A stretch of DNA of 62,376 nucleotides from Catajapyx aquilonaris (Eukaryota). The position numbers were made by a program, and so were the translations under genes. Each line of letters opens with the position of its first letter. The first letter of the stretch is position 1. The stretch lies in NCBI GenBank assembly GCA_000934665.2, contig JYFJ02002147.1, positions 1-62,376 on the forward strand, in the 5' to 3' direction. Shown one piece after another: positions 1 to 35,117 of this stretch. Under the pieces are notes generated by a model. It saw nothing but the letters and a program-made list of their open reading frames with translations. It did no database searches and was not told where the DNA came from.

Positions 1-849
1 GCCGCAGTGGCGCTTTCCCATGTTAAACTCGCATAGACGGTGGCGACACTGCGGAATTTTTCCATGAGGCTCCGTAATAAGCCGTGGGCTACTACTCTAA
101 GGACAGTAGGGACCATTGGTATTAGGACCGTAGGCCTAACTGACACGAGATAAAGCCACACAAAAGCATATAGGTTGTAGAATCTGGTCGTCACTGTATG
201 GTTTATCCTACATGAGCAGCAGGTATGTTAGTGCGGTGCCATTACTGCTCTTGGAATGACCTCTCTGTGGACAGATTTTCGACCTAGTTCAAGCCAAAGG
301 TCACATGTGTCCCAACATGATCACTTCTTCATGTTATGGCATTTACACGGCTTATTTCTTGGAGAACCAAGACTACGGTTTACCCTATCTCTCTAATCTT
401 CTGTAGAACCAGGATTTTAGCAGTGATTGGGATGATTTTATTGCAACATAGCGAGCAGTGATTTTCTCCTTACGCTTTATATTGCCTTAAAAATATTGTC
501 AAGGAGCCATGTATGCATATATGACGCCGAAGTGGCTTACGAGACAATTAGTGTAACTAATAAGCTTTGTTTTGCCATATGCAGCACAAAAATTCTAGTA
601 GAACACGATTGCTATATTGGAAGGTCCTAGCTAGTCTTTTAAATTTAGGGTAATATGCATAACACAAAATCCAGTTTTATCCAGTTTTTTAAAGAAGCCG
701 GCGAGCACAGGAGTTATTCTTCTGAATATTTCTCCCGTTTGGTAGTGATGAGAGCAATACCAATATACATGGTGTTTATAACTAGTCCAGCCAACGGCCG
801 TCAGGGTATTCGTTGGGCCAAAACAAGTCGAAAATGTAGGGGGAGAAAA

Positions 850-1618
850 CCCCTTCGCTACCAGATACGCCCGAACCACATAGATTTTTTTTGGCTTACG
901 CGTACTCCGAAGATACGGACAAGATATTTTACACATGATAACAGCACCATGAATGTGTCTGGAACAATTTTACTCGCCTATAAGTCCCTAAATTAATTTC
1001 CAAAAAAGGCTATAAAAACTCGAAATTCTAGTACTGTCGACCAACTGTTAGGCTGATTTAATTATGAAATACGTGAAAATATGCGGAATAACAACCTTGA
1101 GAACCATGCCAGACGAATTTTCTGAACTTGTCGTACTTGTTGCGAGAAATAAATTAATACTTATTTGCGGCTTTCTGGCACTTCGGAAAACTCCCAGATT
1201 GATTGGCTTCTCGTGAAGTACGCTGATTTCAGCAAATTCATCTCATACTCATTTGGGAGTTTTCCAAAGTCCAGAAAGCCGCAAATAAGTATTAATTATT
1301 TCTCGCAAAGTACGACGATTTCAGGAATTCGTCTGGCATGGTTCTCAAGGTTGTTATTCCTCATATTGTCATGCATTTCATAATCAAATCAGCCTAACAG
1401 TTGGTCGACAGTTCTCGAATTTCGAGTTTTTGTAGCCTTTTTTTGGAAATTAATTTAGGGACTTATAGACGAGTAAAATTGTTCTAGACACATTCATAGT
1501 GTGTTTTTCCTGAACGGGTAAGTATAGCTGTTATTAGTTGTAAAATATCTTGTCCGTATCTTCGGAGTACACGTAAGCCAAAATTTGTGTGGTTCGGGCC
1601 TGTCTGGTAGCGAAGGGG
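850..1618. mobile_element. Foldback non-autonomous element with piggyBac-like ends
   Basis: About 350-bp imperfect inverted arms (850-1197 and 1252-1618). Ends are CCCCTTCGCTACCAG / CTGGTAGCGAAGGGG, with TTAA at 1619-1622. The left TTAA is missing. No transposase ORF. Confidence 0.85.
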
Positions 1619-1632
1619 TTAACGAGGTAGAC

Positions 1633-1785
1633 GACCAAAAACATTGGCCGGTGGTTGCCGAAGTTGCAGGATATGAGCGGTGATCTAATCACTTCTATGA
1701 AAAAGGTGACCTTGCAAATCCCAATAGTCGCGATTTTCACGCTCATATCCTGCTTCTTCGGCAACCATTGACCATGTTTCTGGTC
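1633..1785. mobile_element. Small MITE-like hairpin
   Basis: GACCAAAAACAT..TGGTTGCCGAAG..GCAGGATATGAGCG pairs with CGCTCATATCCTGC..CTTCGGCAACCA..ATGTTTCTGGTC. Confidence 0.7.
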
Positions 1786-1914
1786 AAGGTCATTTTAACA
1801 GTTGCTCCCTCTACATTTCTCTCCCCTACATTTTCGACATCTTTTAGCTCAAGGAATACGCTGACGGCCGTTGGCTAGACTATAGTAACAAACACTCTGT
1901 ATTTGTTGTCGATA

Positions 1915-1973
<59 letters not shown>

Positions 1974-1984
1974 CCACCACCACC

Positions 1985-2039
<55 letters not shown>

Positions 2040-2040
2040 T
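1915..2040. repeat. Compound microsatellite (TAT)n(CCA)n(CTA)n
   Basis: Three adjacent trinucleotide tracts, directly visible. Confidence 0.97.
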
Positions 2041-2953
2041 TAAGGGTTTGCGCCAATAGTTTTAGCACCAATATTACGAACAATGTAACCTTGTAATAAT
2101 ATTATCAATTTTACAACTATATGTCGCAAAACTTTATTACTGGCAGAACAAAACGCGGAACAAAAGGAAATTGCCTATAATGGAATGGGATCTTACTAAA
2201 AAGGTCAAACTTTTTTTCACGAGGAGCTCGGTATAAGTTTAACAGCTATAGTTACCCCGTTTGTAGTGAACCTTGTAGTGAGAGTCCGTATTCTGTACCT
2301 GTTATGTCAGTTAGTCTGGTTTTTGCAGGCACGCTTTGAAGTACTAATGTATATTCAAGTATCGCATTTTAAACGCCGTCAATGAGGATGCTTTCAACAG
2401 TAATTTGTATGTTGCTATAATGTACGGGACCTGATGTTTTTTATCGGGGCTTCTGAAAGTTATGCATGAATCAACCTAATATGTGGCATAATCAATCGGA
2501 TGTCGGAAATAGCTTTTATCATGTGTGCGTAGATCCAAGCATAGCTCGTGTAATAATTGGCATCCATAATATCTCTACATCAATATTCAACTGCAAGATA
2601 ACTTTTACGCAAAATATTTACAAAGTTGCGTATGCTGCCCTAAATAGGTTGGTGGTATGAACGAGACCAACGTTGGATATTTGTATGAAAAATGAAACAC
2701 GGGTTTTATAATTTTCAGGATAAAGTCAGAGTGTGGCTACAGCTTCACAGGTGGTGCCACTAATTTTTTTTCCACGCAATGATATTTATAGACTTAAAAA
2801 CACAATGGCGACATGTCGTTCTAGTTTAGGTGGTATAAAGAACATTTTATGTTGATGGTTATACTGTATATCCTACGCTTAGCATTCTAAGGGGGTAAGT
2901 CATTAAGGTTCCCATGTCTGATGTAGCCGAATGAAAGCATCAGTGGAATGCAA

Positions 2954-3138
2954 CTACACCATCGAACTTGCCGGGTGGGCAATGTTGGAATTCCAGTGGG
3001 CAATAGGAGGGTGCCCAGCACTAAGGATTGCACAATGGCGATAAGGCTCGAAGAGGTATCGTATCAAAGACAAATCCTGAGACATGGTACGATTACTATT
3101 GGTACTCATGGAAGTCCATGTGACCATGTCATCGCAGA
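2954..3138 (-). CDS. Candidate phase-1 terminal coding exon of the dsx-like gene
   Basis: Acceptor CCATTCTTGCTCACAG with an upstream CTCAC branch-like motif. Phase 1 matches the exon B donor. It reads (V)CDDMVTWTSMSTNSNRTMSQDLSLIRYLFEPYRH...HPASSMV* for about 61 codons, and GC is above the flanks. No homology recognised. Confidence 0.3.
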
Positions 3139-6100
3139 CTGTGAGCAAGAATGGTGCTGCCGAGTGAGCGGAATGTAGACTATTATGGCATTGTTTAGCA
3201 ACCTTCTAGAGAGCCAATAAACAATACCAAGTTGACATGTATAACACTCAATCTGCTACCGATACCCTTGTTCTGCCTTAGCATGCAAACTTATGGCACC
3301 ATTTGTGGACACTATGTGGTGACACACCCATCAACAGTTTTTGATGAATCTTCATAAGTGTCATATCCTGTGCACAAAGTATAGTCGCATCACAATGCAA
3401 ACGTCCTCAATAGTATACATTCAAGCCTTCAGTGTGCGATATACTGTACTGTATATAGATGGTATATAGAGTGACAAGCCATATCTTCAACAGACTATAT
3501 AACTCACTTCTTACGTTCGGATGAGGAACCAAAAGATATATACAGCGCACGGTGTATGAAATAAACAACCAAATACTTGAATGCAACCAATATCTATGGC
3601 AGAAAAAAACTACCCGGATCAGTTGGTTTGACATCACTATGACACTGTGGATTACTTGGAACTTCTCTCCTGTGACGGATCTATCTGTCGATAAACCTAC
3701 AACTGCAAGTTGAGAAATACTGGCAGAGAGGACTAAAAAGGGCAGTGAACAATAAAGGAGATCAGAAATAAGAAAGCAGAGCCAGACGATTGTTAGATAA
3801 GCATCCAGACGTGCCCAGTTAGCTCGTGACTCTTTGGCCCACAATATCTATAAACTGCGAACCATATTTGCCCGTTGTCATCTCGCCTCAAGGTATTTTT
3901 TCATCCTAGCTCATACTCTCATTACGATATAAAAATAAGTGAGGACACTGACGTTCAAAGCATGCCACCGACCCCATCTGTTTCTGTTTCAGTTAATAAT
4001 AATTAAATCACAGGTAATGAACCTTTCTGCCCTTCGCTTTGATGAACCGTTGCCACTATAGCATTTCTTGTTTTATCCCATCAGAGGTCGTTGCGGATTC
4101 CAGATCGCGTGCCATCAAAAGCCTCCTTCATGATGGTATCTCTCTCAAGTCTTTACATAGACTGCTGGCATTTACGATGTACCTGGCACTTCATCAGTAT
4201 TATTTACACTCGAATGAAATTAGAGTAGAATCATTTAAGCCTCTTGAAGCCCGTAATATGTTGACGACCTCGTCCGACCTACACTGAAATTTCCATGTGA
4301 AATGTACTACAGTACGATATATAATCTTTTTGTGTGAAGCTTTTAATACTTAGGGATATGAGGAGTATTGTGCCTATACGCAGCATCAATAGCAATATTG
4401 ATGGAGGCATATCTTGTTAACACATATAGTTGCTACGAGTTTATTCATGGGGCAATTATGCTTATAGAATCATCATATACTTTTCTTTAATGCAAAACCG
4501 GTAACCAGCCTCAGAATCATAGTGGAAATTCTCTCATGCATTAAACCAGCGGTATTAATAGGGATTTTTTTATTGATGATGAGTTGTCTGGAAACTCAGC
4601 ATGCGGAAGCATATTATGCATTCCATTATTCAGTTGTTTACTAATAGAGTTTGGTGCCACGCTGATCAAGCTCCACTTTTTGGCGAACGGAAAAATAGAT
4701 TTGACTGAAACTTGTTACTCTTTAACTCGCATGACAATTATAGTCTGCAATAAATGCTCCGCTCCAACCCAGGGTAAATACAGCAGATTATGGCTTACAA
4801 TCCCTCGACCAATTAAGGAGATAGTTTGCGGCAAATGCAACACTGTCCATTGCATAAAGGGAGAACAACATTGAGCACAATTGAAACAATGGCCTCCCAT
4901 CCAGTGCAGCTAAATTTCGCATATGGTGTTAGGTGTTAGTGACACACAAATTACCAGACAATGCTAGTGGCAATGTGATCATGTACCAGACACCTTTGAA
5001 TCACATTGTCATCCTGACACAACCCACGTAGAGGTCTAGGGGCTGTTTTACTTCCCCGTTTTGAGTGAATGGTGCACGAGTTCACCGCCGGTTAAAACAA
5101 ATATTAGCGTACCAGGGATGTGTTTCGCGACGGCAAAAACACGCGTTCCATCCACCGCCCATCAGAGAATCATGTAGCGCCTATTGGTACCGCATAATAT
5201 GAACGCCGGCAATGAATACAGAATACAGTACGTCCTGTGCTTGACCAGAGTATATATTAATAAGCAAGCTTTTGCACATATACAGCATATTAGCCTCATG
5301 TCCGCAAGTTGACTCGTGGGTTTTTTGGTTGTGTGTTGGTTAGCTGGTTATCGATTGCAAAAAAAAATATTTTTTGTCCCGGACGTTGGTGAATATCATG
5401 TTCTGCTCAATCCAGCAGACGCTTCCATTAGACATTGTCTGGGCTTCAACTTGCAGCGCTTATTGTTCCTATCCTGCACTTATAAGGTGTATGGCAATGT
5501 CCTTTGTGATTACGCACGTGGGCAAGTATCGAACCGGAACTGACAGTACGACGTTTCTATATAAACAAGATGAAACATAGCCTCATTTTCACCACATATA
5601 GACTAAGATTGTGCGGTACACTGCTTCCTTCACCGTTGGTTACGCCGCGCCGCGCAGGTGTGGCTTATTCACCATACAGTAAATGCACAGAGAAGGTTGC
5701 TCATTCATCAGATTTAATCAGTGAGCAAGTGATTTCAGGATGATTAATCCGACATGATGCGCCTGTGCAATCAAATTGTAGGAAAGACAAGCTGGACACA
5801 GCCGGCAGATGAATCAGTTGGAGCATCAAGGTATGGTTCGAGGTTAGTCGCAAGCCACGTGCATTTTGCCATATGAATAATGGACTAGTCAAGTCATAGC
5901 TGATGCTCGATTGACGTAACGCTATTAATTGAAGCTAATGAATAGAGTCTGGTGCAGACCGCTTCAAGCGTACGCCATGTTTACATTATTGTCATTGGCC
6001 TGTCGATACCATTTGACGTATTGAAGACATGCTCTTGCCCATGACTGCTTTTAGACACGAACGTCCCACTGAGAACCCCCGTCGTATGTCTGACAATCAA

Positions 6101-6949
6101 TTTTTCATTGCTAATTATATCTCCAATGACATGTAATGAATAGGAAGACCAGAGAGATGTGATAGCTTGTCATGCTATGGGAGGAAATTCCGACACCACC
6201 GTGACTTTCGCCAGATTTAGTCATAAGTTCATAACAGTCTTTATTTAGCAGAAATAATCGAATAAGTAGAATCAATAGACGCCCAGATGTGTATAATGTA
6301 CAAAAGATGCTAATTTATTTCGCAAATCAGTGGCCTTCGTTGAAAGTTCGTTAGTCCCGTAAAAGGGGAAAAAATTACTCGGCAAAACATTATGAAGTAC
6401 AGTTGAATTTTTCTCATTTTCAGACTTTAATCTGACAAGAATGCGCACACTATAAACAAAATTGCAAGTGTCTATGATATCATCCCTTTAAATCTGTTAC
6501 AGGCCGGATTCAAGAATCTGCTAATCCTGAAGTGGCAAGGCAGGGGGGGAAAAAAATGGTGTCACTGACACCTTGTGTAGGAGGCAGAGCTGGACTCTAG
6601 AGTCCATCGCAGGATGCTCTCAAAATTCGACAAAGTCTGATTGATTGTTGGATTATGCGCATCAAAATATATAACGTCGCATTTATTTTCCGTCACCGAA
6701 TACTGACTTGTGTAATGAATAAAGCCATCATACACTTACTTGTTACGTACAACAATTATTCTTCATAACTAATCCCGAAAAAAAATTACGTCAAAATGAG
6801 ACATTTTTTAGGCACCCTGTAGGCGCGAGTGTCAGCCGGATGATTATTAATGACTCAGCGCACGAGCCACGCTGCCTCATACAATGTGAAGTCTAAACCA
6901 CAAGGCTTCCGGGGGGTTTAAATCTTAAGGCCATAAGCCCATAACCGTT

Positions 6950-7070
6950 CATCTCTGAAGTCCCGAGTTCGATCCCCAAATCAGACAGACGCTAGACGGA
7001 TGAATTTGGTCACGTGGAAAGAGCCATCGGGGTACTCCTACTCTCCGAAAAGGTCGTCAGCATTCCTTCT
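6950..7070 (+). mobile_element. Degenerate SINE-like fragment
   Basis: B-box-like GAGTTCGATCCCC at about 6965. No clear A box or TSD. Confidence 0.3.
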
Positions 7071-10000
7071 ATGCCGTTGCCCTATGAAGTGACTCAACTT
7101 CTTCGTAACACATCCAGATTAAATTTCAGCCAGAATATATCATCCAACAGACATAAAGGGGTAGGGGTAGGGGGGTTAGAAACATTCGATATTCCACATA
7201 TCATTTTAAAAAATTAATGAGTACCCAGCAAAGTGTGTACTTGACAATTTCGCGTTTTTAGATTCGCAGTTTCGAAGGGCAAAACAATAAAAGCAGACTA
7301 TTCAAGGTGGTATAAATATAAATGGGTGGGGTTACGGGTTCAATCACTTGCTCTCCCGCCCTTCCACCTGACCTTCCCAACTTTTACAAACACGTGTAGA
7401 GACATAAGAGATCCCTGAACCTAAAGTGATTCATCCTAACAATTAAAACTGCAGTACTTGATACCACCCGATGTAATCTTCCAGGTGTACATATGATAAC
7501 AGCCTGCAGTACGCTCTAGTAATCACGTTATCTATGGTGTGAACTCCAATTGAACATTATTTAACCCTGCATAATTCACAAGCAGAAATTTTTTCCATGA
7601 AAAAAATATATTGCACCAGTTGGGAGAGGAAAAAAAAAGAGGTAATGGAGTATTGCCGGTCGGGAATAACCTACCGAACATTGAAACTTTGGTCTAACGT
7701 CTGTGTGAAATCATCGTCCCTTGAGGGTACAGGCGTACACCACAAAAAATCTTTATTACGCTCGCTAAAATTACCCAACAACAAACCCTCGTAAATTGCA
7801 CTGTAGACTACAGTACACGTGCAACGAAAGTGGAAAGAGGGGAGAGGCGGGGTGGCAGGGGGGGGGGGGGAGAAACTATGCTCCCCGGGGTGTGTATGTG
7901 TGTGTGAGGTGGGGGAATATTTCCATGCACGCGAGGCTTGCAATAATCTACTCTTATTCAACCTGTTGCATGGTGCCTCCCCCATGTCCCCCACCCTAAC
8001 CCCAACGCTCTCTGTCTGCCTCCCACCACCCACTCCCCCCTACCGTCTGGCTGAGCGTCGAGACGCCCATGACGCCAAATTCACAGAGTTTAGTACGCGG
8101 GCTATTTCCTCTGACAGGGTTCAACCCGCTCCCATATGGTTACCACACATCAGGCAAAATAACATCATCACTTCCCTTCCCCTAGGCAAGCCCAATCGGT
8201 TAATTTGGCCAATCAGGACCAGACATATTTTTTTTGCGACCGCTATTTCGGCTCATTCGCCGCTATCGGCAGCAATTTAGGCGTATGTCCCATCCACGGA
8301 TCTATTGTGCCCCCTTTGTGATTGGGCCGACACGCACGCGCCGATCGATGCAGTTTCATTTTCACATGTCCTGATATGTGTTGACTGTCATGTTGGTTTG
8401 TGAATTGGAATTTTGGAACATAAATAATATTTCGCACGTGCTTGCAGCTTTTGGTCGAATTTTCGTTCATATTTTATGAGCGTTGGGTATTCAGTGTCTA
8501 TGGACTCAATTATCTGATTAGGTGCCGAAATGTATGGTCGTTTTGTGCAGTGTAGTAGCATATGTTTTTGACGTTGGAATAGCAGTAAGTCTGACATTGG
8601 AATATGGCTCAAGTAGATATTTTCGAAAATGGCGAATTTTCTTTACTGGAATTATTTTTTTAAATTACCGAAAACTGCTCATTTGCATCTCTTGTGGTTG
8701 AAAAGTTGAGTGCAGTGTGATACAATGGTATGCGTGCCATAATACAAACATAGTCCAAAACCTGGAATTTGACATTGAATGTTGTATATGTCAAGGCTAT
8801 ATTTCGCACGAGCTTTTCCCGCTCAGTTAGTAAAAAAAAAAGTTCTCCACGTGTATGACTGTACAGTATGTTCAGTCTTGTATAATACCTGGTGAAATAA
8901 TTTTTATTATTGATGCAGTTATGAGAAACATGGGATGAAACCTGCACCTCATAAAGGAAAAACAGTGTAATAAAATATCTGTTGACACTCCGAATGCAAC
9001 CTTCGCCAAACACGTGTTGTTCAACTTCCTCGTTCGGTTCAAGGGTAGTCATACAGATAGTACTTTATATACAGTGCACTGCCATATTTTTAGCGCAGCT
9101 CCACGTGCACTCTACAGGAGCTGAGAGGAATGCGTCATGAATGCAAGTGTCGAAATTATGCACAATAATCTGTAATAGTGAATTATATGATATTACTAGC
9201 ATCAACAGTTGTCGCAATGACTCTAATTCACATCTGGTTGTCAGAGTAATAAGACCAGGATGAACGTGTGCATGTGCATTGGCGCAGTAGGCTGCATCAG
9301 GACATGGAGCGATAAATTAAGTTGCATTAATATTGTGAATAGTAGTTCGATGGATGTGTTTACATGCGGCGGCTCAGAAGGTATCTGATGGCATCATATA
9401 AATTTACGGCCATGTGCATCATTTTTTTATTGCTTGCGTAAGAACATAGTGACGCCTATTTTTATAAGCTGTTAGACCTGCAAGCTTCAGTTACAATGCA
9501 TGACTCATGGATGTACTAGTATATCTTCCTGATTTATATTTTGTGCAGTAATCATAGACAGTAACATATGTATTACACGATAATAAGCCTATTGTCCTAA
9601 TCGACTCTTGAAAGAGGCGGGAGATTGGTTACTTTATTTAATGACTGAAAATTAGTTTTTTTGTGTGTTATTCAACATTATAAAATAAGCTTTATAGGAC
9701 AGTGTATTTCTACAGGAAAATGTATACTTTGGTTTCAATTTCTGACAAGAAAAGATTACCGTATCATCAAAGCTTCCTTTATCATGAAATTCACAGACGC
9801 GCTCCAAGTGGGTATGAGACTGCTTGCAATCAGCCCTTTAATTCTCAAAATTACGTCTGTGATAAATTTACAGTGCAATACTGCAATATCTGTCTTCAGA
9901 TAATTGATAATATTGTATTTCATCAAAACAGTTGGCAAAATTTTGCATACACACTCGTGTTCAAAATGTACATTTTATTTAATTAAACTTGCATGCCACA

Positions 10001-13000
10001 GGCATTTCAAGACAGATGATTCGTTGTAATTAGTAAAAAATTACCTTCGATAATTTTTATATAAGATTGTATAATTATATTTAATCCAATTTACCTGCAT
10101 ATTTAGCCGTAAACAAACTGACAATTTATCCGCAACCTGTCACTTTCTGAAGGCTACGCCTCAAATCTTGACAGGCCTCTACGCAATCATTGTGCAGTCA
10201 CCGTAAGCAAATCTCTCAATTACCGCAAGCGTCTTCAACACGATTCTATCATCTCACCCCAGCAATTTCATCTCACAAGAAATGGACCAAAAGAAAACGA
10301 CCCCCACCTCCCCCGACACATAGTGTCACGTAAATACTCTTATCACATGACAGCTGTCAGACCGTAACTGGAATGCCCATTTCATGCCTCCTATACACTT
10401 ACCACATTCCCCATAATCTTAACATTACATCACTGTCACCAGAAATACACATGTGTTTATTCCCTAGTTTAACAACCTCACATACAATTCGCGAATTCCG
10501 CGAATATGACACCTGAAATTGCATGGGCTTGTACGGCATTGCGAATCAATATCAAAACCCGTGTTCTCGGTCAGGGAGCAAAGGCAAGCACGTGCGGCAT
10601 AAATCCGTCCTAGGTGCAAAAGACCCCAACTTCAAACCAGTCCTAATCGATATCTCTCCCCCGGTCTGTGCATCCACAGGGTTAATTCCCTCCGTTGGCC
10701 ATTGGGAATTGTTACCCAATTTCCGGATTATTACCCTGGTCGGGTATAAGTCCCGAGAGCGTTTCGCGTCAAGACACGCACAATGCTGCGTAGGGACGCC
10801 GGCTCGCTTCCCCTTCGGTCCCCATGCTGGACTCCCGCGCAGCGTCGCATCCTGGGCTACCAAGATGGAAGTCCCCCAACGCGCGTCTTTCCCACCTTGA
10901 AACGGGTTGTTCCCGCCCCTGTGCCAAGATCGTGCAACGAGTCGGAACTATTTGCGGAGACCGGCACGTGGCAAGGTCACATTCAGAGCTTTTGGCGAAT
11001 GCGCTTTCCCGCGCTGCGCGATAGATCGGGGTTTATACTATGTGATACGGAGAATAAAGCGGAGAGTGGGGGAGGGGAGAGGGGGGTTGATTGCACGTGG
11101 CGACCTTTGCTGAGGTCCGGATAGCGTCACAGGATACGCAAACACCAAGCCGACCGCAACCATCGAGACCGTGATATTTCGCGGAGTGACTCCTTATCGT
11201 TCATACCCAAGGTTATCGGAATTGTGCATATTGTAACTACTTGGTTTAAAACCGATGTCGAGACAATGTCATATGAGCGAAACAAATTTGCTGAATATTA
11301 AATCATGTAACAATGTCATATTGGTGCTAATTTTTTTGATTAAGATATTCATTTTATAGTGACATGATTGTTTAGATACAATATTATAGCACCTATAAAT
11401 ATTATGTAAATACATAAGGGCTGGGTGAATGTCCCCCCTACAAGGTCTTTGCACCATATTATGTCCGTATTGGTGACAACTTGAAACTAATAACTCGACA
11501 CAAGAACTGAACCTGTTACTAAATTTTAATATGAACAACCAAACAAGTTATAACCCTGTATAAGTAAATAAATAACTTCGTCAATCAAGGGCAGGCATGG
11601 TTTTTGTCCCACTAGTACCGGTACTAGTAGTAAGAGATGAATGATTCATGATATATACAGCAACAAAAGCGCATGCACCGCTCGAAGGCCCGCTCAATTA
11701 TTTCCGCAACATTGTCTGGCCGTGAGAAAACTCGTTTCATTCGATCCCAAAGCTAGTTTATAAGTCCGATTTGCAAATAAGGGGGGGGGGGGGTCTGGTG
11801 GGTGGGTGGGTGTAGGGAGTGCAAGGGGTTCACGGGTTGTCCTTGCCGACGTCAGCGTTGCACTTTAAGGTCATAGCTGCTTTACTGTAGCAACTGATAA
11901 CGTGGGCGAAAAATGTTTGCGTCCTTGAGGATTCTCCACGTGCGAGCGTCCGTTGGAAATAGGGAGACTATCGCACGCGGGGGCTATGACTATGCCCTTT
12001 GTAGACTGCCCGCCGACAGCCTACAATGTAGCCTTGATTATATACCCTTTCAAACATCGTCTCGCGATAAAGAAAATGTGATTCGGTTGACAAATGAATA
12101 TATGAATGTGACTCGATTCTTTCTGACCCTAAGCCACTACTATTGGAAGGTTAAATCCGACTCGAGACTTTGCGAAATTGTTTACCGACTGGCGGGGTGG
12201 GTGACGCCTGCTGCACTTTTGTCACATTTTACGCCGCAAGGGGTCATTCCATAATGGCTTGGAAAGTTGTTTTAGTACCGGTTCAACACAATGAAACAAT
12301 TTTTTAATATTCAATTATTCTAAACATTTGCACGGTCTCCTTCGACCACCCCCATTTTTTATTATGATTTCTTTCTTAGAATGTAGGGGAGGACACAAGC
12401 TGAATGACCTTTTTTTTAAAAAAAAAAAAAGTTGACTTAAATTGTCGGAGTTTTCTCAGGCCGCTTGTGGCATTGCCCTTGCACTTTGTAGCAATTATTT
12501 CCCGCGCTCTATTTTTAAACTATGAGCGTGCATATAGGGCTACCAATATGCGACCGGCGCGGCGTTCTTTATTGCGAGGACCTGCACTTCTTTTTTTTCC
12601 CAGGTGACCAAAAACATTACGAGTGTTCAATAATTGCAGGTAAAGTCGAAAGCCTCTGTACTGTAACCCCCAGTTGTCAAGCAATAATTAGGCCTACTAG
12701 AGCGGATGTAATCTAGGGGGCTAGATGCACTATATTTTAACGCCATACTTTGTATAGGGTGCTGGTGCCCGTTGGATATGCAAATGAAGTGCGTGGCGGC
12801 TGGCTATCTGCGTATATTATTGCGGGTTGTTTTGGTCATTTTGATTCGGAGGGAAATTACGGCTGGAATATGGGCAAGATTTAGGAGGTGTAGTAGACGG
12901 AATTGTTTCCGGTTTCGAAAAATAGTTACATGCCGTTTTGGTATATACTGGTAGTGTAGTGAATAATGGTATAAAATATGACGGCACGTGTTTCCCGTGG

Positions 13001-16000
13001 GAGATAATATGGTAGAGCGTGTCATTAATGTCAGATGTATCATGCAGTGCTAGAGTTAGGTAAGACTGTTTTTGGGGGAGGGGGGGGGGGAATATTTGCT
13101 GATTTCGGAAGGCTATAAATGGTTGATCGGCATTAGCATAAACTAGATGAAGAAAATGAGCTACACGTAAAATCGTGCATATTATTTACCCCAAATATGT
13201 TCGGAGGAAGAAACTGATTATGCATATCCTATTTGCTGACCTATACCGTATATATATATACTGTACGCTTTTCTCGATATAATGTGTCAAAAGTGCAAGC
13301 AAAAATGGAGATAATTTTTCACTTTTGCATATGAATATGTTGGTGTTATCTGATTAGCTTTTTTAAAAACGTTGCCTTCTACATGAACCTTAGTGACATT
13401 GTCGAACACCATGAAGGTGACGCTCTTTCTCGTCTGAAGATCAGAGCGGAAGAGCCGGTTTCTCACGCAATCTATAAATATAGGATACTGTAATAAATGA
13501 AATGCTCCTCGCCTTTTCCGTGCTTAATGACTAGCCCTACTATATACAGTATAGTAAGTCATGCAGTAACTTACATAATATAACTTACTGTACACCTGAG
13601 CCCTATACCGGTAGTCAAGGAAAGCGAGATTGCACAGTTGGTTTTACTTAATTATATTGCACGTGCACAAAATAAAACCACGAACACTTTGAATTTCTCA
13701 AGGAGAGAGATTGGTTTCGCTCTTTCATTAATTTGTGCTAATTGCCGCATAACATAGCGTTAACTGTATATTTAGTCCATACATAGTTTTCTATACAAAA
13801 CGATGGTGCTCGTAGGGAATGAGAAGTTTCTATTGGGAGATACTGTAGTTTTCAATAGATATTTCATCCCACCCTGGTGCTATCCGGCCACATCTAGTCT
13901 ACCCAGTCGCATCAAGTGTAGTAATTCTGAAGTGTAGTAGTATCAATCATGGGCAAGTTTCCTAACTAATTTGGAGCCATCTGTTTCTAGTTCAGACGTG
14001 GCTTTGCCGCCAGGGTGCACTCACAAAGTAAATAGACTCGGTGGATACTGGATATGTACTATGTGTGAGTCTATAACCACTCTGGGGAAACCTGTAAGCA
14101 TAAGCATCCTATAGGGTTTGCAATAATTTCCGGCCCACTGGATAAATACTACTATAGAAAGTGAACGCCCTAAGACCAGATTCACCGTCGTTGTACTGTA
14201 ACTATAATTTCGCTTCCCCCGATTCTTACTAAACTGTATGACCTAGCAGGAGACTACTCGTCGGTCAATAGTAACTTATTTTACCAAGTACTCTCTAACC
14301 AAATGCGATTGCGCTATACAGCTGTTACTTCAAACACAGAACTAGTAAAGTGGACAGGAATAATGATAACTATAACTATACAGCTTGGCATACTGTACAC
14401 GAGCAAATGCTCTTGTCGATAAAGTAATTGGAGTACTTCCATATGCCACTAATCATAAAATACCTATGCGCACCTATAGGTCTACTGTATGCATCTTATA
14501 TCATTATACAGTATGCCGCATCGTTCCCTGCATTTTGCACCAAAGAAACACTATGGACATTTCCATACAGGAACACACTGTATATTCTATAGCCAACAAA
14601 CATGAACAATACACTTACACACGACGGCAAAAGTGAATATTTTTATTGCAAAATTACTAGAGCATCCTTGCATCATCCCCGACACACTCTGCAATATTCT
14701 GCTATAGTCACGATTGTGACTGGCGGGATCAAGAAAACTGGCCGACAGTCATTCTCTCCGTGGACTTTCCAAATTTCTGGCTACGCCCATAACTAGTTCA
14801 AAGTATGTACTAGCAATCGCGATGAATTGCACCTCTTGAAGGACATCCTATGGCACGCCGAACCGTACTTGCAACAGCTGGTTTTAAGTTTAAACCTCCC
14901 GGACCAAACAATAACAAAAGGCTGTCACACACACCAGCCATGTTTTTCCACCGAGGAGAACAAAATATTCAGCTGGCCGTGAAACCAAATCTCATGCTAC
15001 TCTTCATAATCTGCGGTATATCAGCTAAGCTTTTTCAAACAAAATTTTTACCTCTACTGTAAGTACGTAGTGAACTTATACCGAATCATAGTACCGTATT
15101 TTCTGCATTTTGACCAGTGCGATGCCCGGACCAATGTAAGTGCGGAGAACCATATTTTTATTTCTGAAAATAACGAGCGGTTTTTCCCACCCCTATCGGT
15201 GAAAACAAGAGTTTATTAAATTGTCATTCGTAAACAAAGCGCATGGACAACTTTTGTCCTCAAAATAATGGTAAAAAATCAATTATCAATACAAATATCG
15301 CATTAACGAATATGCGACGATTAGCGTCGAATTAAGGAGAAATCAGAAGCAATAAACAATAGCGAAGATATATCTGTTGCCGCATTTCAAGCACCAAAAA
15401 CTTGACTGCAAATTATAATTAACGTTAGTAGAAGAGGAGAATGTGCTCCGATCCCAATATTAATTTTACAGCCCATAACCTGCAATATACCCTCTCGATT
15501 TCCCCGGCTATAGGTGTGCGATAAACTACACATTAATTATCATCCCTCTAGAAGCGCGGTTCCTACTTAACCCCCGTTCACAAATCCTAGTTAAAATACA
15601 GTAGCACCCTCGAGTCGCAAAAATAAAAATAAAAAACACACTATGTAACTCCTAGCCAGAAAATAGACTCCTGGTCTATCCGGATCCACCTCTCCCTGAA
15701 CACAAATAGCCTTTCTTATTTTAAGACAAAACAATGTTCAATGTACAGTACGTAGTACATCACCACAAGTGCAACATTACAAGGATACTCAAATCTACCT
15801 TACTAGACCAGGATCAATACACCCTGCGCGAAATAGTGCATATTGACACTTCGTCGATTCAAAGTTGGGCCAGACATACAGTACCACCCGGCGCATATCC
15901 TACAGGGTGTTACATCAACCAGAATCCAGCCTACTGCACTGGCTGGATAGCAAGTTGCATAGGGACTGACCTTGAACGGGGAGCAAAAGTAGGGTGAGTG

Positions 16001-16192
16001 GCCTGAGTGGCCTTGACATCAAATAGGGGCGGCTGACGGTTGGGCGCTCCCCCATGGCGCGGTACCTATAAAATGCTCCAAAATACGCGGGGGATGTCAC
16101 CAGGGTGCCATGTCTTCAATCGCCATTCGGCCAGACAGCCTGTCGTCTGTTGGAAGCTAGGATGGACAATCCATTCAGTCTGCCGAGTTCAA

Positions 16193-16359
16193 TCATCGAC
16201 TGTAGGGTGAAGAAACTCGGCTATCGATCGTCAGCCAGTAGGTTACTAGTACACGGATGGCGACAGGTTGTGTCATAATTTTACACAAAATTTCAGGGGA
16301 GTTGGCAAATTTATATGATTCGGGTTGAGTGACGGCCAGATCCGGGGCCTGAGGCTGGC
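16193..16359 (-). CDS. Candidate phase-1 alternative terminal exon of the dsx-like gene
   Basis: Acceptor CCCTCTGCTTTATGCATATAG|GC. In phase 1 it reads GQPQAPDLAVTQPESYKFANSPE...SSPYSR* (55 codons), within a GC-elevated block. No homology recognised. Confidence 0.2.
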
Positions 16360-19300
16360 CTATATGCATAAAGCAGAGGGTAATGGATACATTTATGTCG
16401 GTGTCGGAAAGATGAAAGGTACGGTAGAGATGAAGCTAAGCTCCAATTAAGAGCGTATGTACACCAGGTATATATGGCAGGTCTCCCGTGGTCCGGTGGC
16501 CACAATTTGCCATCGGTAACATTCTAATTCACACCCAGCATTCCACAGGTAGGAGAATGCTGCTAGATCAACCGTCACTCACCTGTCTAGATGCCCTCCT
16601 GTCTGAAGAGCCTCTGAGTTAGTGGTGACGACAAACAGCTTCTTGGGCCGTAATGTTTCAAACACTATGGCAACCCGTGAACAATTATTGCTATTAGGGC
16701 GTAAAGGCGTTAAAGGGATATGTTGTGAAAAACATGCGACTTTTTTTTTGTGCGAAACAAATTAGAGTGTGGTATGCTGACTGACTCAGTATTGTTTACA
16801 TCACACGCGTAGCATTATACGTTCTTTTTTTGTCCTACGAGTCAAGATTTGCTGAGTCATTTGTAATGGCTTTAAAGTAGCGGTATATCGCATGCGCAAT
16901 TTACTTCCTTATGCAGAGTTGCATGTGCAGCAATTGTTGAGTGTGATATGTGTTGGATGCACTACCCTAGTTGAAAATTGTGTTCAAAAATGCGTAAAAG
17001 GGTGTCCTCTTTGGGCATGTCAGTGAGTAAAGTGCATGCGAATGTACAGGGTGTGACGGATGGACGTCCAAATTACACATTGTGACATTCTCTTGATTTT
17101 AATTGTTTTTATATATAGTGAGAAAAAAATTAGGCCGATTGTTGTAGATAAAATTATGTTCCAATTCATTCTAAGTAAATGAAAATTTTCTGCTATTTTA
17201 TGGGATGAAACCGTTACAAATGTGTAAAAAGTGCATCATTGGCGCAGGTTCAAGGCAGTTTTTTTCCCAGGACTTGTAGTACCACACTAGGGCACTTACA
17301 TGGAGTCAGGTGGTTGAGATAGGGTGTTGTAAAAGATTAGAATGGCATGTAAACACGGTCTTGGAGCATGTCATTATTGATGAATATCAGGTCCATGTGT
17401 GCAATAAAATATTTTGCGATGTTCACGAGAAAACAACATTATTGGGTTGGAATTATATGCGAACTCTTTTAAGATTAGGAGATATTTGAGTTTCAGTGTG
17501 TAGGGTGAATAGGATCATGCTTTGAAAGGGCCCCTCTTTGTTTAATTCATATTTATTCAAGGTCAGTATATTTAGAACTGAAAGCATGCCATATATCAGG
17601 CAGTGAAATACTGAAAGTGGCAAAACTTTTTAGAGGGAACAAGTCCAGATAAGCTTCTATTTATATTTTAAGTAGTACAGCAAATTCCCATGAAGATTGC
17701 CGATGAACTTCTAAAACCATCTAAGTGAAGCCTTTGTTTACTGCATGTATGTATCATGTGTGAAATAATAATGCAATATATTAATAGCATAACGTACAGT
17801 TCTAATATTTGAACCTTGTCATTTCATTCATCCCATAATATTATTACTGTACACCACTGGACTGTATAATAGCGAACAGAGATAATTCTTTGTCCTATAC
17901 TTTATTTGCAAGGAAGTTTAAAATTCTTATTAACGATATTAATAACAGGAATGGAGGTAATATTTTCTTTGTTCATAATCCAGAAAAATGTACAGCAATA
18001 TAAAAGAATCAGGATCTTCATAATTATTCCCATTTGACAAAAATACAGTAGATGGAGCAATATATTATTTTATCATATTCACCCTCTCCAGTTTAGCCAT
18101 GTGACTTGAAATTGTCAGATAATTACAAGCATACTTAACTATAATGTTTGTAAATGGGTAATGGAACTGAGATCACCATTCACCTGGTTCAGATACAGTA
18201 TACCATAAGAGTGTCTTGAGGATGACATTACGCACAATAAACAAGTAAGACTCTGTGATTTCATTACACCAATTATCATGAGGTAATAATAATTAGTGAC
18301 GTCCACAAGTACAGAGAAGGACAACATGGAAACATGGTATCATTCCAAATACAACTGGTTGTTGCTTATCACATTAACAATGCGTCGTAATTATTTTTGA
18401 CGAGTTTAAAACCAAAGTAGAAAATTACGTCCACCCTGAAAGGGATATCAGTGTTCACCATATCTGTGATGAGGTCATAGAACTTTCAGGCCTCATTTCC
18501 TTATCCTGTTACCGAGTTCTCGTCAAGACCTACGAGGTGAAAATTATGACAGTATTAAACTTGTCATTTAATTTATCCTACATTTTGCTCTCACAACTAA
18601 AGCAATTATAATTATATCTCAACTTCGACCTTTCCTACTGTGGTTTTACAAACCCTTTGTGTAAAGTTGTGCAATTCCAAGGGAGGCAATAAAAGTGCAC
18701 AGAATAATAATACGAGAGGTGAGGAGTCAGAGAAAATACTGTATCAACAGGGAAGGTCCACTTCCTTCGCGTAGGGTTTACGGGCAGATGGATCTGACAA
18801 ACCTCAGCGTATCCGCCCGTACACCGCATGTACTTGAACTAAATGGACTTCAGTATTTCTGGCTCCGAACGCTCCATATTATAGTCCTGCAGATTTACGG
18901 GACACCAATACCATAAATTATTGAGCAATTAAAACCACATGGTGGCGCTTGACGTCCAACTTTGCAACCTACTACATCATGTTTGACAAATGTATTGCAC
19001 GTGTACTAGAAACGGTACAAAAATGTTCCATTTCAAGGCGTATCTAAGTTATATTTACCATTACTTGCTTAGACGGCTTCTTGCGTAAAAATGATATCAT
19101 GATGGGAAAGGCACAAAAAAATATAATAAAAAAGTACTGTATTTCATTCATTAGGTCTGACGACATAATATCGCACGCGTTTCCTATTTGCACATGTTAT
19201 TGCTCCAGTTACAGTTGCATTAGGCTTACAAATACATGCAGGTTGTATTTATGCACACGTGTAATTTCTTCGTTTAGGGCCAGTCTGAGCATCAAAAAGA

Positions 19301-19590
19301 GCTCATGATAAATCACCTGCTAAAGAATTGCAATGATTATGACGAGTGGTACTTGCGTTGCATTATGCTGCCGAACTTATGCAAATCCGACCTGTCTCTT
19401 GCCGCCTAATGTTCATGACCTTATTTTTTTCATGATCCTAACAGATTCACGATAAGCTGGACTACGTGGCATTTCAATCAGCCATTTGTCACTCTTCGAA
19501 AAAAAATACTGTATAAATAAAGTTCCTTTCTTAGGCTCACATTGGATAGGTTGCATAGGCCAGGACTTGCAGGATAGACCTTATGATCAT

Positions 19591-19963
19591 AACTCCCGCT
19601 GGGAATCGAACCCAAATCTCGGACCTCCAGTGAGATCCGTGTCTTGCCATTAGACCACAAGGAGTCAGTATATCAGTCATGTACAAGGAAAGGATATGCT
19701 TACAGGTTCAAAGATGGTCAGGACATACAGACCAAATAATCGAAACTCCCACTGGGAATCGAACCCAGATCTCGGACCCGTGGTGAGATCCGTGTCTTGC
19801 CATTAGACCACAAGGAGTCAGTATATCAGTCAGGTACAAGGAAAGGATACAGGTTCAAAGATGGTCAGGACATACAGATCAAATAATCAAAACTCCCGCT
19901 GGGAATCGAACCCAGATCTCGGACCGGTGAGATCCGCGTCTTACCGTTAGACCACAAGGAGCC
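19591..19963 (-). repeat. Three tandem tRNA-like (Pol III A/B-box) units, about 150-bp period
   Basis: Units start on the + strand at 19591, 19744 and 19891. The minus strand reads CTCCTTGTGGTCTAA(T/C)GG(C/T)AAGAC-CGGATCTCAC..GGTCCG-AGAT(C/T)TGGGTTCGATTCCCAG-(C/T)GGGAGTT, with recognisable D, anticodon-like and T arms. The two spacers are also nearly identical. Confidence 0.9.
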
Positions 19964-20126
19964 AGTAGACTATACGTATGTCTGTATTTGGGAAGGACTT
20001 ACAGGATGAATAAAGAAACTTTCCAACTTACTAATATGAAGATGGTCAATTCTGTCCAGCTTGACGCGATCTTAGCTGATACACAACCTGCACATACGGG
20101 CACAAGAAAAGGCAAACTTCACTTAC

Positions 20127-20607
20127 CATGAGGGTATCCATGCTGGTACAAGGAACCTGTTGATAGTGATTTCCCGGGGCCATTGATGGCCACATGGTGT
20201 GAGGATGAGGTTGACGACGGAGATGTCGGCGTCGCGTGGGATGGCCCTGCTGGTGGAGCTAAGGGCATGGTGAGGGGCAAAGTGGAAAGCAGAGGCGGTG
20301 GAGGGGCCAAGGTGGTACCAGGGAGGGTTGGAGGTGGTAGGGAAACTTCAGGGGCAATGGTCAGCAACGGGAGAGGTGGTGCTGACCGGCTACCTTCGGT
20401 GGTTGAGGCCGTTGAAGAATGATGTGGGAGACCTCCGAGAGGAGATGAGGATGCTGGAGATGCTGATGCTGACGGTCCTACTGAAGAGTCAGTGTTGAGG
20501 TCGTTGGCAGGTATGGGGTCTGGAGGTGGCAAGTCAGGCCCAGCCACTTCTTCTACTGACAGCTCGCCTTCTTCGCACCCCTGCGAAGCACGGGCTTCGT
20601 CTTGCGC
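20127..20607 (-). CDS. dsx: Doublesex/DMRT second coding exon (end of DM tail plus Pro/Ser-rich linker)
   Basis: Acceptor TTTTCCTATGTCGTTTCAG|GCG, phase 0, giving AQDEAR, which completes the conserved RRAQ-AQDE motif. 481 nt open, GC-rich, Pro/Ser/Thr-rich. Consensus donor CATG|GTAAGT at 20127/20126, phase 1. Confidence 0.9.
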
Positions 20608-23600
20608 CTGAAACGACATAGGAAAATATGCAGTGCTAACCGACAAATTATGAACAAGTCATTACTTTGAGGAGAGTAACAATAGCGTGGTTATAACAGT
20701 TTCAAGAATATGTTCATGGTTTGTATGCAAGGTAGTTTTGTGTTAAATTAATTGATGGCATGTCGATGTTACGTGATGTTACGGGCATGATGGCCTGAAC
20801 TTTCTCATCTCATGCACTCTGTTTCACATTTTCATGGCTCCTGAACGCAACATGGTTCCCATCAGTCACGCATGTCGTCAGGCAATGGTGTATTATACAC
20901 TTTGCTGGCAATATATTGCATTACGCCCATTTAAAAAAAAAAAGCGAGACCAAGTTGCATTATGAGAAAATTGCTGGAGTCGTTCATCACACCCGACCTA
21001 CCCAGGGAAATAAAAAGTCAGAAGAAAACATTGCATGTGAAAATTGTTGCCTGCTCAGCATTGACAGTCGCACACATATTTCCTGAAATACGCTCTTGAG
21101 AGCAGACAACCCAGCCACGAAATCTACACCAGTTCGCAGTATGGTTACACTAAAAATACATATATTTCGTCAACGACTGATGGAAAACATGTCTTCAGAA
21201 GAAACGAATACAAATCATACCTCCCATCCTCATCACGCCATTGCGGGTCTTCCCCGATCCCACTTTGCAGCGCTTAGGTGTCTGCTCCTGGTCTATTCAG
21301 CGCACCTGATGGCACGTGTATATACTAATCGGAATGCGGCAGTTCCCCCCACCCCCCCCCCTCCTGGATGGTATTGTGGTCAGGAACTTTATTTGCCGAG
21401 CCAAGCCCCCTCAGGTGACGAGTCGTGATTGTCGAGACCCGTCAAACCTCAGCCCTCATCTGCCCCGTGTTTCTCTCTGGGTTCCCCGCGAAAAGGCTTA
21501 CAAGGTGGAAGAATCGATAACCGCAAATCGTGGATGCTCCAAATTGGCAGCACGCGTGCCCTTTTCCTATATGTATATACCCGAGACAAATCTGTACTCA
21601 GGTACCCCACCCACTTCACTACTGCTATTCCAATTTGGCCATTGGGCCGTTCGGATTAATCAGCAGGTGAAATGAAATTAGATACTGTATGATCTGTTTG
21701 ATAGTGAGGTGGGAGGGGGATAGGGAAGGGAGGGAAATTACAGGTTGGGTTGTGATGAGCTTCAAGGACAGCAGGTACAGCTATAGTTGTAAGTTGTAGT
21801 GTGCACGTGCCAAATATGCAGTAGTCAGCAAAAATGGTTGGGTAATCCCTTGTGCGCAAACGTGTGCGACTTGAGTCACAAAAATGATATAAAAATGCAC
21901 TCCCCTCCACGTGGATTTATGTAATGATTGTTACACTGAAGTTCATGTTTTATCGCATCGGAGAAGCGGAACTCTCCCGCGGAGAAACGTTATGTCAATG
22001 TGACACGCACTGTGTTTGTATATTTACGAGACAAGTTTTTAGCGCGGGGTGATACCCGTGCATGATCTGAAGGTCGGTTTTTACGCCTATTTCCAGCCTT
22101 TCTACATTGAGCGACACATTTCCTCTAACACATATAATTCAAAAATAATTTGGTACATATTCCGTAAATACGGAATGTGTACCTAATTATTTTTGAATTA
22201 TGTGTATAAATTTTTTGAATTACACGATATTTCGAATATGTACGTATAACTTTTACAATAACTTTTGAATTATACATATTATACAATAATTTGTTGAATT
22301 TAATGTGTGTAATATATTGCATTATCTGCATATAAATTTTGAAAAATTACTGCTCATTCATCATTCGATGTTAGTGTCAATTCCAAACTGTACACTATTT
22401 TCCAGTAATTATTAGCAATTTTCAGCTAATAAACTGTCCTATTGATATTTCAATAGTTACCCATCCATATGAGGCATACCAATTAATCGACACCGATTAT
22501 AAATATTATTGGCCAACATTTGACCCGTATTACTCGCATCGTGGTTTACTACAATTTGTCCCGCCGCGCCGCCGCGCGCCGTTCTGATAGACTGCACTTT
22601 TTAACCAACTTGTGCAACAGCTTACCTATTTTAGTGCATATATCATATAACACTGCAGGCGGGGTACACAAACTGAAGCAAATGCACTGTACCTACACCG
22701 AAGCAGGTACATTTCGCTTTATAAATATCCCCCCCCCCCTCTCTCTCCCTTCAATTCGTACTGTATGATACAGTATTTCGAATGCAAAGTCTTTCTGCAC
22801 TTGACAAAAAAAAAATCGCTAAGAAGTATCACACGTTCGCACTGAGTAACTCCGCAAACGCAATTACGGATGCGGAAAATGCGATCCAATTTAGTCGTCG
22901 CTGAATGGCAAGCTATTTAAATGGAAATTATCTGCACTACCGAGTGTAGTCACCTTTGCACAATCTCATCTAGCTCGCAAGCGACTGTATATTGACCTTC
23001 TCATTGAAAACCGGATGGATGCCTATATCTACAACCCTGCGTGAGTAAGATACAGTCTACAACAAAAATCTTGGCGAGCAGCAAAAAAAAAAAAAAAAAA
23101 AATTGTTTTACACGTGCCGGTAAGTTGGTGCAATTCGAAATGGGTGGGTGCAAGTAGAGGGTGGTGAGGGGGGGTACAGTATAAGGGGGATTGTGCCTTG
23201 AATGGTTGCCAGGGGAGTCCGGGCAAGTTTCGCGACGACCTACGGAAGGGGGTGAATGCAGCGGTTGAAGGACGCGCACGTGGAGTTTTCTATAGGCTCA
23301 CTTCGGTGAGCTCGAGTGTCGACGTCATGCGCGGGGAGGGCATTTACATTGTAAATGCGCGCGAAGAGCACATGCTAGCGTGACCCAAAAACCGGACCTA
23401 TTTTGGATATGCGGCTTAAGCAGATAAGGGTTTATTATGGTGTGTTATTATATATATACAATGCAGATTTGAGATAGATATGATGGAAAACTATTTTGGA
23501 TGGTCAGTTTTGTTGTAATGTTAGGAATGATATTAGGTGGATTCAACAGGTGCATCGTTGGCGGATGGGGTGAAACGCCTTATTAGGATGTAGTTTAGGA

Positions 23601-23785
23601 CCGTCTGAGGCGGTTTAATGGCCAGGTTTTAGCCGTGCAGAACCAAAATTTATTCGATCGGTATATCAGTGAGTCGGGGCACGCAGGTTGGTATATGTAC
23701 TGCATGGATGTTATGGCGGCAAAATCGGAGTGATATTTGGATCAATGAATTCTCGGCAGTCAGTTATACACATTTTCTTATTATA

Positions 23786-24347
23786 CAGGGTGTTTATTGT
23801 AATTCTGCAAAGACTTTCAGGGGTAATAGAGGGGACCAATACAAGTATTTTTGACATAGGAACCTGTGTCCGGAAACGCCATCTAGAGGGGGTTCATAGA
23901 CAAGGAATGGGTGCGCTCAGACTCTTCATGCGGGAGGCGCTAGGCGAGCGGACTGTTTTGTTGATAGATGGCGCTCGAATAATAAACACTGATGCGATGT
24001 GCCATAACCTGGCAACAGCAGAGCCATCTAGCAGCTAAAGTTCTCCTCCTAGGAGATGCGCGGATAGTCAACAGCGCATTTGTTGTTGCCAGGTTATGGC
24101 GTATCGCGTTGTTGTTTACTTACAATGACGTGATACGCCATAACCTGGCAACAACTGCGCGCCACCTATCAACAAAACAGTCCGCTCTCCTAGCGCCTCT
24201 CGCCTGACGCGTCTGAGCGCACCCGTTCCTTGTCTATGAACCCCCTCCAGATGGCGTTTCCGGACACGGGTTCCTATGTCAAAAATACTTGTCTTGGTCC
24301 CCTCTATTGCGCCTGAAAGTCTTTGCAGAGTTACAATAAACACCCTG
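23786..24347. mobile_element. Tc1/mariner-type non-autonomous element with long TIRs
   Basis: TA|CAGGGTGTTTATTGTAA ... TTACAATAAACACCCTG|TA. About 190-bp inverted arms and a TA target duplication. Three internal copies of GCCATAACCTGGCAACA (one inverted). Confidence 0.9.

Positions 24348-25471: not shown

Positions 25472-25473
<2 letters not shown>

Positions 25474-25547
<74 letters not shown>
25474..25547. repeat. (TTA)n microsatellite
   Basis: Directly visible. Confidence 0.97.
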
Positions 25548-29040: not shown

Positions 29041-29268
29041 CCGTCAATTGGGGTGAGAATGTGCCAGATGGGGTGAGATTGTGCCAGACCATTTTTTGGA
29101 CAACAGTGGGCCCTACCGAGAATTTTTATCCGCCATTGCCAACCTTGACCATCCCTCAATGTAGTGAAACATGCCTAAATTCGCTTGCTGCCAGTATGGC
29201 GCACCGTTGTCCAAAAATGCGCTGGCACAATCTCACCCCACCTAGCACAATCTCACGCCAATTGACGG
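29041..29268. mobile_element. MITE with TA duplication (pogo/Tc1-mariner-like ends)
   Basis: TA|CCGTCAATTGGGGTGAG ... CTCACGCCAATTGACGG|TA. Each arm has two copies of a GGGGTGAGATTGTGCCAG-like motif. Confidence 0.88.

Positions 29269-35114: not shown

Positions 35115-35117
<3 letters not shown>

Follow-up and report, generated by a model that had tools for sequence, protein, structure and literature searches.

Exons for the DM domain and linker of a doublesex-type gene in Catajapyx aquilonaris, and an OD2 exon that may lie beyond the edge of the window

The stretch of DNA analyzed here, referred to as the window, comprises positions 1 to 62,376 of the forward strand of contig JYFJ02002147.1 from Catajapyx aquilonaris (GenBank assembly GCA_000934665.2). 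The sole recognisable gene in these 62 kb is of the doublesex (dsx) type and lies on the minus strand. An upstream exon, here called exon A, contains the DM DNA-binding domain, and exon B follows after a long intron and closes with a splice donor. How the gene continues beyond this donor, and what became of OD2, the C-terminal dimerisation domain of Dsx proteins, is the subject of this text. The main features are as follows.

36521-36003, minus strand: exon A, from start codon to donor; 519 nt, 173 codons, including the DM domain
36024..36164, minus strand: DM DNA-binding domain; Pfam positions 1-47, residues 143-189 of the open reading frame from 36590
20608..36002, minus strand: intron 1; 15,395 bases, defined by donor and acceptor context and by the joined product
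20127..20607, minus strand: exon B; 481 nt, 160 codons, a linker rich in Pro, Ser, Thr and Ala, with a phase-1 end
20126-20121, minus strand: consensus donor GTAAGT, overlapping the read-through stop TGA (20121-20119)
1..20126, minus strand: region downstream of exon B, in which no coding exon can be recognised on the plus or the minus strand; taken here to be the opening 20.1 kb of intron 2

Exon A opens with an ATG at 36521 and closes with the donor CAG/GTAAGA at 36003 (slashes mark exon boundaries). It lies in a minus-strand open reading frame (ORF), 36590-35835, that contains both the start codon and the complete DM domain. Exon B opens at 20607 after a TTTCAG acceptor and closes at 20127 before GTAAGT. 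The open frames of the two exons total 333 codons, and their G+C content of 0.57-0.59 (0.588 in exon B) compares with a background of 0.41. The joined product reads ...VALRRAQ/AQDEARA... and runs on as in the Dsx consensus; alignments to Dsx proteins cross the junction, among them the alignment to protein P0016 of the springtail Allacma fusca (69% over 88 residues). With 519 nt in exon A and 481 nt in exon B, exon B ends one base into a codon, which confirms the phase-1 end that an earlier, sequence-only reading of the locus had ascribed to it. The end of the exon reads CAT G/GTAAGTGA, a consensus donor that, if left unused, leads to a stop two codons on, so that the unspliced product would terminate in ...HGK. 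The same reading had considered a DM-only product, an idea that does not hold for a gene whose second exon, bounded by consensus splice sites, still spans 160 codons.

The DM domain of exon A matches the full length (1-47) of Pfam family PF00751 with an E-value of 6.9e-21 and 74.3 bits (cut-off 27). The zinc-module pattern (CCHC and HCCC) corresponds to residues 124-153 of the spliced product, and all eight Cys and His zinc ligands are present with canonical spacing. In the Protein Data Bank, exon A matches the DM domains of human DMRT1 (4yj0, E 4.8e-20) and Drosophila Dsx (1lpv, E 9e-20). The zinc module thus places the protein in the DMRT superfamily. Protein searches with exon A returned DM-domain matches only, with multi-DM proteins, not orthologues, as top scorers, and a protein atlas placed the exon in generic DM clusters only. 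An 11-residue motif from the DM domain of the gene was not found in literature text. Exon B did not match any Pfam family and had no relative among 8000 scored candidates in a search of longer proteins, and the N-terminal 110 residues of the product were without match in protein collections of 5.8 billion and 1.8 billion entries.

The placement among DMRT types comes from a maximum-likelihood tree of 57 distinct DM regions over 61 columns, of which 38 are from proteins with OD2, 13 from proteins with a DMA domain, 3 from DMRT2 and 2 from named chelicerate proteins, the last row being the window gene; multi-DM proteins, short DM regions and duplicate DM sequences were left out. The window DM falls into a clade with all 38 OD2-bearing Dsx rows and one tick protein (support 99/95), and the 13 DMA-type and 3 DMRT2 rows fall apart from this clade. 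Within the 61-column tree, the gene thus groups with the Doublesex subfamily and not with the DMRT93B/99B or DMRT2/11E types. It stands just outside the insect clade (100/100), beside P0016 of Allacma fusca and the OD2-bearing protein P0015, and shares 85% identity with P0016 over the 61 columns. Because only 61 columns were available, the inner order of the Dsx clade is uncertain, but the split from the other DMRT types is clear. Judged by its sequence, the gene is a member of the Dsx clade and appears to be a doublesex orthologue. Many of the database proteins met in the searches carry two or three tandem DM domains (P0121, P0122, P0005, P0006 and P0123-P0128, several of them from spiders or mites), and P0128 carries an OD2-like C-terminus in addition to its two DM domains. 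These tandem-DM proteins outrank the true single-DM orthologues in search scores.

OD2 itself was not found in the window. The minus strand of 1..20200 holds 289 ORFs that run from stop to stop over 25 residues or more, none of which matched PF08828 or the DMA domain at E <= 1, and PF08828 is absent from all six frames of the window, in agreement with the sequence-only reading, which had proposed this DSX_dimer scan. We also built an OD2 profile of 43 positions from 48 OD2-bearing proteins among the search matches, including a springtail protein and a two-DM protein that is not insect-like. With filters switched off, this profile was run over the entire window, represented by 3728 ORFs from all six frames that are no shorter than 10 residues. 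Its top match, on the plus strand, had an E-value of 0.42; the best downstream match on the minus strand reached E 2.4 and 5.8 bits. Together, the Pfam scans and our profile bear out what had been seen by eye, that no OD2-coding sequence is found in the 20 kb downstream of exon B. When 255 DM-family proteins were compared with the window by tblastn, none of the 60 best high-scoring segment pairs inspected away from exon A was convincing. Three isolated matches were rejected. A plus-strand look-alike of half a DM domain at 35435-35518 (28 residues, E 0.026-0.16, or 0.5-1.0 with default settings) has few identities and is attributed to chance; a match of P0209 to 16274-16023 (E 0.048) crosses two stop codons; and a UBA_NBR1_C match at 19212-19319 (E 0.023) is in the wrong phase for the two preceding AG sites and is equalled by many stray matches.

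The last visible exon stops at a donor 20.1 kb from the window edge, and the position of this donor within the protein can be compared with that of OD2 in known Dsx proteins. Across 64 Dsx proteins that bear OD2, the distance from the zinc module to the beginning of OD2 is 79-329 residues (median 127.5; 188 in Allacma); from the zinc module of the window gene to the end of exon B it is 180 residues. The junction before OD2 can also leave a footprint. Dsx records of Trypoxylus dichotomus, and likewise a mosquito pair, are identical until 6-7 residues before OD2 and then diverge, and at the point of divergence the OD2-less form has a Gly (G/GT) followed by Lys or Gly. Among 46 OD2-less proteins whose alignment to the closest OD2-bearing relative ends at most 15 residues from OD2, 31 have Gly-Glu or Gly-Lys within -3 to +6 of the alignment end, compared with 4 of 184 control windows placed 20-50 residues upstream. 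Read-through of a phase-1 G/GTRAG donor produces exactly these residues, which accounts for them at the junction. The exon B donor is of this type, CAT G/GTAAGT with the read-through HGK-stop. As distance and phase-1 footprint agree, the donor at 20127 is most simply the one of the conserved intron before the OD2 exon. Numerous Dsx "proteins" predicted from short contigs (P0142, P0263, P0274, P0277 and others) are read-throughs into the pre-OD2 intron; they show the Gly-Glu or Gly-Lys junction and then unrelated residues, and are mistakable for OD2-less isoforms.

Three sites in the downstream region had been put forward as acceptors of alternative terminal exons.

16193..16359, minus strand: first proposed terminal exon; phase-1 frame of 55 residues behind the acceptor ranked 9th among 1048, G+C 0.491
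5701..5762, minus strand: second proposed terminal exon; frame of 20 residues behind the acceptor ranked 39th among 1048, G+C 0.387
2954..3138, minus strand: third proposed terminal exon; frame of 61 residues behind the acceptor ranked 57th among 1048, G+C 0.486

The three acceptor positions and the stops at 16193, 5701 and 2954 were read correctly, with phase-1 frames of 55, 20 and 61 residues, but their standing as exons does not rise above chance. We ranked acceptors by a log-odds score over the pyrimidine tract and the -3 and +1 positions, using general consensus frequencies that were not trained on the host organism. The acceptor of exon B scores 6.03, a value reached by only 2 of the 1048 downstream AG sites on the minus strand. 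The candidates score 4.27 (16359), 2.04 (5762) and 1.45 (3138), and the site at 3138, which had been held to be the best acceptor, is the weakest of the three on this scale. AG sites at the three thresholds number 9, 39 and 57, compared with 8.2, 38.3 and 51.6 in a first-order Markov simulation, and are outnumbered by those on the plus strand (13, 53 and 72). Phase-1 frames of at least 20 residues open behind 19 of those 57 sites. None of the three candidate exons matches a Pfam family, and their G+C content (0.39-0.49) is below that of the real exons. Structure models made with AlphaFold2 from single sequences, which are weak evidence in either direction, gave one long helix for the candidate at 16359 (with a pLDDT, the predicted value of the local distance difference test, of 69) and a pLDDT of 51 for the candidate at 3138, and formed the three-helix bundle in neither case. 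The three candidates thus do not exceed chance, and are best read as unremarkable AG sites within an intron, with open frames behind them that arose at random.

The gene as seen is not bounded on its left side. Pfam scans covered the 289 minus-strand ORFs downstream of exon B; of the other ORFs with 62 residues or more, 218 in number, the 150 that lie up to 41.6 kb; and, beyond 41.6 kb, 119 of the 120 ORFs with 50 residues or more, the one with the single N being omitted. Besides DM, they contained no further Pfam domain. Poly(A) hexamers number 34, compared with 25.6 expected from composition, and were judged uninformative; the two nearest to the read-through stop follow it at 1.5 and 2.2 kb. 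Because no other Pfam domain was found and the hexamers are near expectation, we regard the gene as unbounded in this direction. Tra/Tra2-type 13-mers, counted with a motif that was not drawn from a tool, occur 9 times in the window (14.3 expected) and do not form a cluster there.

With moderate confidence, we favor the reading that 2954-20127 is intronic and that OD2 is encoded by an exon outside the window, past its left edge; a window-edge effect on an ordinary dsx gene is the most likely explanation of the locus. The sequence-only reading had offered two options, and clade, distance and donor footprint lean towards this one; the other, a locus that makes OD2-less isoforms, appears less likely. 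The minus strand of the window would then represent the 5' part of a dsx orthologue, in which exon A encodes the N-terminus and the DM domain, and exon B would encode the disordered linker that separates DM and OD2 in other Dsx proteins. Exon B would end where insects have the conserved phase-1 intron ahead of their OD2 exon, the sequence from 20126 down to base 1 would be intron with repeats and tRNA-like elements, and the OD2 exon, together with any sex-specific exons after it, would be placed beyond the left edge. Both the existence of this OD2 exon and its splicing to exon B are inferred. The reading is preferred because the donor is perfect, the tree neighbors carry OD2, and intron 1 is long; as this intron already spans 15.4 kb, a second intron of more than 20 kb is plausible. 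Price et al. (2015, PMC4538375) moreover recovered OD2 from almost every order of hexapods, the basal Collembola, Protura and Diplura among them.

Several points weigh against this reading, the most direct being that the OD2 exon is not seen in the window. The non-DM part of exon A and exon B are unmatched in two very large protein collections, which suggests that the lineage of the gene has a divergent Dsx. According to Price et al. (2015, PMC4538375), the type-A OD1 motif, with a start similar to Thr-Pro-Pro-Asn and Lys-14, is linked to dsx genes with OD2, whereas the window DM begins with Arg-Thr-Pro-Lys and has Asn at position 14. The OD2-bearing springtail protein P0016 also starts with RTPK, however, so that the type-A motif does not define Dsx proteins outside the insects. 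The argument from intron phase shows the ancestry of the donor, not its present use. Finally, repeated losses of OD2 are reported, for termites (PMC8346542, 10.1101/2024.05.07.592865), for Malacostraca (PMC10252143), and possibly for Embioptera (PMC4538375).

These losses lead to the main competing explanation, which we consider rather unlikely, namely that OD2 was truly lost as in the Dsx of termites and Malacostraca, and that the protein ends by read-through of the donor (...HGK-stop) or in a short lineage-specific terminal exon, which could lie anywhere in the 20 kb and possibly, but not necessarily, among the three named sites. It would account for the lack of OD2 in every frame of the window and for the missing relatives of the non-DM parts. 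It has precedents in termites (10.1101/2024.05.07.592865, PMC8346542), in Malacostraca (PMC10252143) and in the OD2-less isoforms reported for the louse Pediculus (PMC6721801), and a 144-residue Dsx record of Trypoxylus stops five residues beyond the same junction. However, a donor that fits the consensus perfectly would not be expected without an exon to join, the candidate acceptors do not exceed chance, the candidate exons have G+C (0.39-0.49) under that of the real exons (0.57-0.59), and the first 1.5 kb after the read-through stop are free of poly(A) hexamers. OD2 is present in the tree neighbors, and the malacostracan hallmark, a Cys-to-His change at a zinc ligand, is absent from a gene with eight canonical ligands. 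In its more specific form, as an independent loss in the dsx of a non-insect or early-branching pancrustacean lineage that has reused the ancestral donor or reads through it (...HGK), we hold this explanation to be doubtful. The absence of OD2 could instead be one of detection only, if a strongly diverged OD2 or UBA-like exon lay within 1-20126 and escaped the profiles used. Standard domain searches are reported to miss the OD2 of Daphnia Dsx, with none identifiable in a spider (Panara et al., 2019, PMC6604209), and our own profile failed to pick up the C-terminus of the spider protein P0005. Yet the best downstream minus-strand scores of 5-6 bits (E 2.4-4) are no better than those of plus-strand or upstream matches, and the sole UBA-type hint in Pfam (19212-19319) cannot be reached in phase 1 from the two preceding AG sites, which makes a hidden exon improbable.

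Two further explanations assume that the gene is incomplete. Exons A and B might stem from an incomplete duplication of dsx or be what is left of a decaying gene, the 3' exons having been deleted or not copied in the first place. The failure to find a downstream exon in the window would fit, but 333 open codons, the full set of zinc ligands, canonical splice sites and exon-like G+C are hard to reconcile with decay, and we consider a remnant very improbable. We attach scarcely any probability to a truncated paralogue of dsx that is linked to sex and serves as the primary sex determiner, as DM-W does in Xenopus or iDMY in a lobster, a proposal that finds no positive support. All that points to it in the window is the absence of OD2, and the intact 160-codon linker exon and its consensus donor give no sign of truncation. 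In archotermopsid termites, a Dsx has been reported whose only domain is DM, which is encoded by at least two exons and can be amplified only from the DNA of males (10.1101/2024.05.07.592865), so that such cases do exist among dsx genes.

Comparison with known systems places the gene closest to the springtail Dsx. The protein of the window and P0016 of Allacma fusca have in common the RTPK start, the His-Lys after the second Cys pair and the VMALQVA...RRAQAQDEARA tail, and the linkers after the zinc module are of similar length (180 residues in the window, 188 in P0016). The linker sequences are unrelated, however, the window gene has an intron directly after ...RRAQ, and a recognisable OD2 is present in P0016 but not visible in the window. 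In insect dsx genes, an exon for DM and linker is followed by a phase-1 intron, the OD2 exon and sex-specific exons. The window matches this order up to the phase-1 donor, with an exon-final G at the end of the linker, and its read-through Gly-Lys is the same as in the short form of Trypoxylus; the OD2 and sex-specific exons are out of view, and the cluster of Tra/Tra2-type 13-mers is missing. For termites (Reticulitermes speratus and others), the reports of Miyazaki et al. (2021) and Fujiwara et al. (2024) describe a DM domain of the dsx clade and no detectable OD2, as in the window. Most termite dsx genes are described there as single-exon, whereas the window gene, with at least two exons, a 15.4-kb intron and a donor that looks unused, departs from the single coding exon of most termite families. 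Moreover, it runs off the edge, so that its lack of OD2 applies to the window only. No termite protein was among the named best matches to the window gene. Malacostracan Dsx (Eriocheir, Penaeus and others) is likewise reported to be without oligomerisation domain (PMC10252143), but the same report describes a change from Cys to His at a zinc ligand, where the window gene has all eight canonical ligands. Xenopus DM-W and Sagmariasus iDMY resemble the window gene in having a DM domain and no recognised C-terminal domain in view. They are, however, sex-linked partial duplicates of genes of the DMRT1 and iDmrt1 type, whereas the window holds a gene of the dsx clade with a long second exon.

The sequence around the two exons contains several other elements. 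Starting 164 bp past the exon B donor, three tandem tRNA-like units about 150 bp apart occupy 19590-19963 on the minus strand, with Rfam tRNA scores of 39, 35 and 34 bits and copies that are 90% alike. ARAGORN reads one of them as tRNA-Val(CAC) and the other two as tRNAs with four-base anticodon loops. The array looks like tRNA-derived heads of short interspersed nuclear elements (SINEs) or decaying tRNA genes within the intron. A tRNA-Leu(AAG) gene (Rfam 56 bits) is found on the plus strand at 51658-51739, about 15 kb upstream of the dsx start and on the opposite strand. Pairs of inverted repeats, with arms that measure 130-196 nt and are 86-93% complementary, occur at 23779-24354, 40947-41576, 990-1455, 53278-54883 and 39928-47013; most have spacers of 184-1316 nt, as in foldback elements or those resembling miniature inverted-repeat transposable elements (MITEs), and one pair lies inside intron 1. 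Perfect trinucleotide microsatellites of 15-25 copies are located at 1915-2039 (TAT), 25474-25547 (ACT) and 35117-35188 (TTA), and a 132-bp tandem repeat of 2.2 copies, 86-91% alike, at 61240-61555. A unique G+C-rich segment at 10550-11200 reaches 0.72 in 50-bp steps and has long ORFs on both strands, which match no family and have low protein-likeness in the protein atlas (recognition 1097). As the CpG observed/expected ratio is 0.83 throughout the window, the segment is not a meaningful CpG island.

If the OD2 exon merely lies outside the window, the locus is an ordinary dsx locus and its apparent peculiarity a window-edge effect. Its only value would then be that of two annotated exons with their junctions, from a lineage without close Dsx relative in the searched collections. 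Independently of the locus, the Gly-Glu or Gly-Lys read-through footprint can help to locate the OD2 junction in new dsx genes. Dsx proteins without OD2 are already known from termites, Malacostraca and lice. A true absence of OD2 here would add another independent loss to those of termites and Malacostraca, and would yield a Dsx of DM domain and linker that is under transcriptional control instead of having sex-specific C-termini. Such a loss would bear on how Dsx functions without a strong dimerisation interface, and on the gain and loss of sex-specific splicing.

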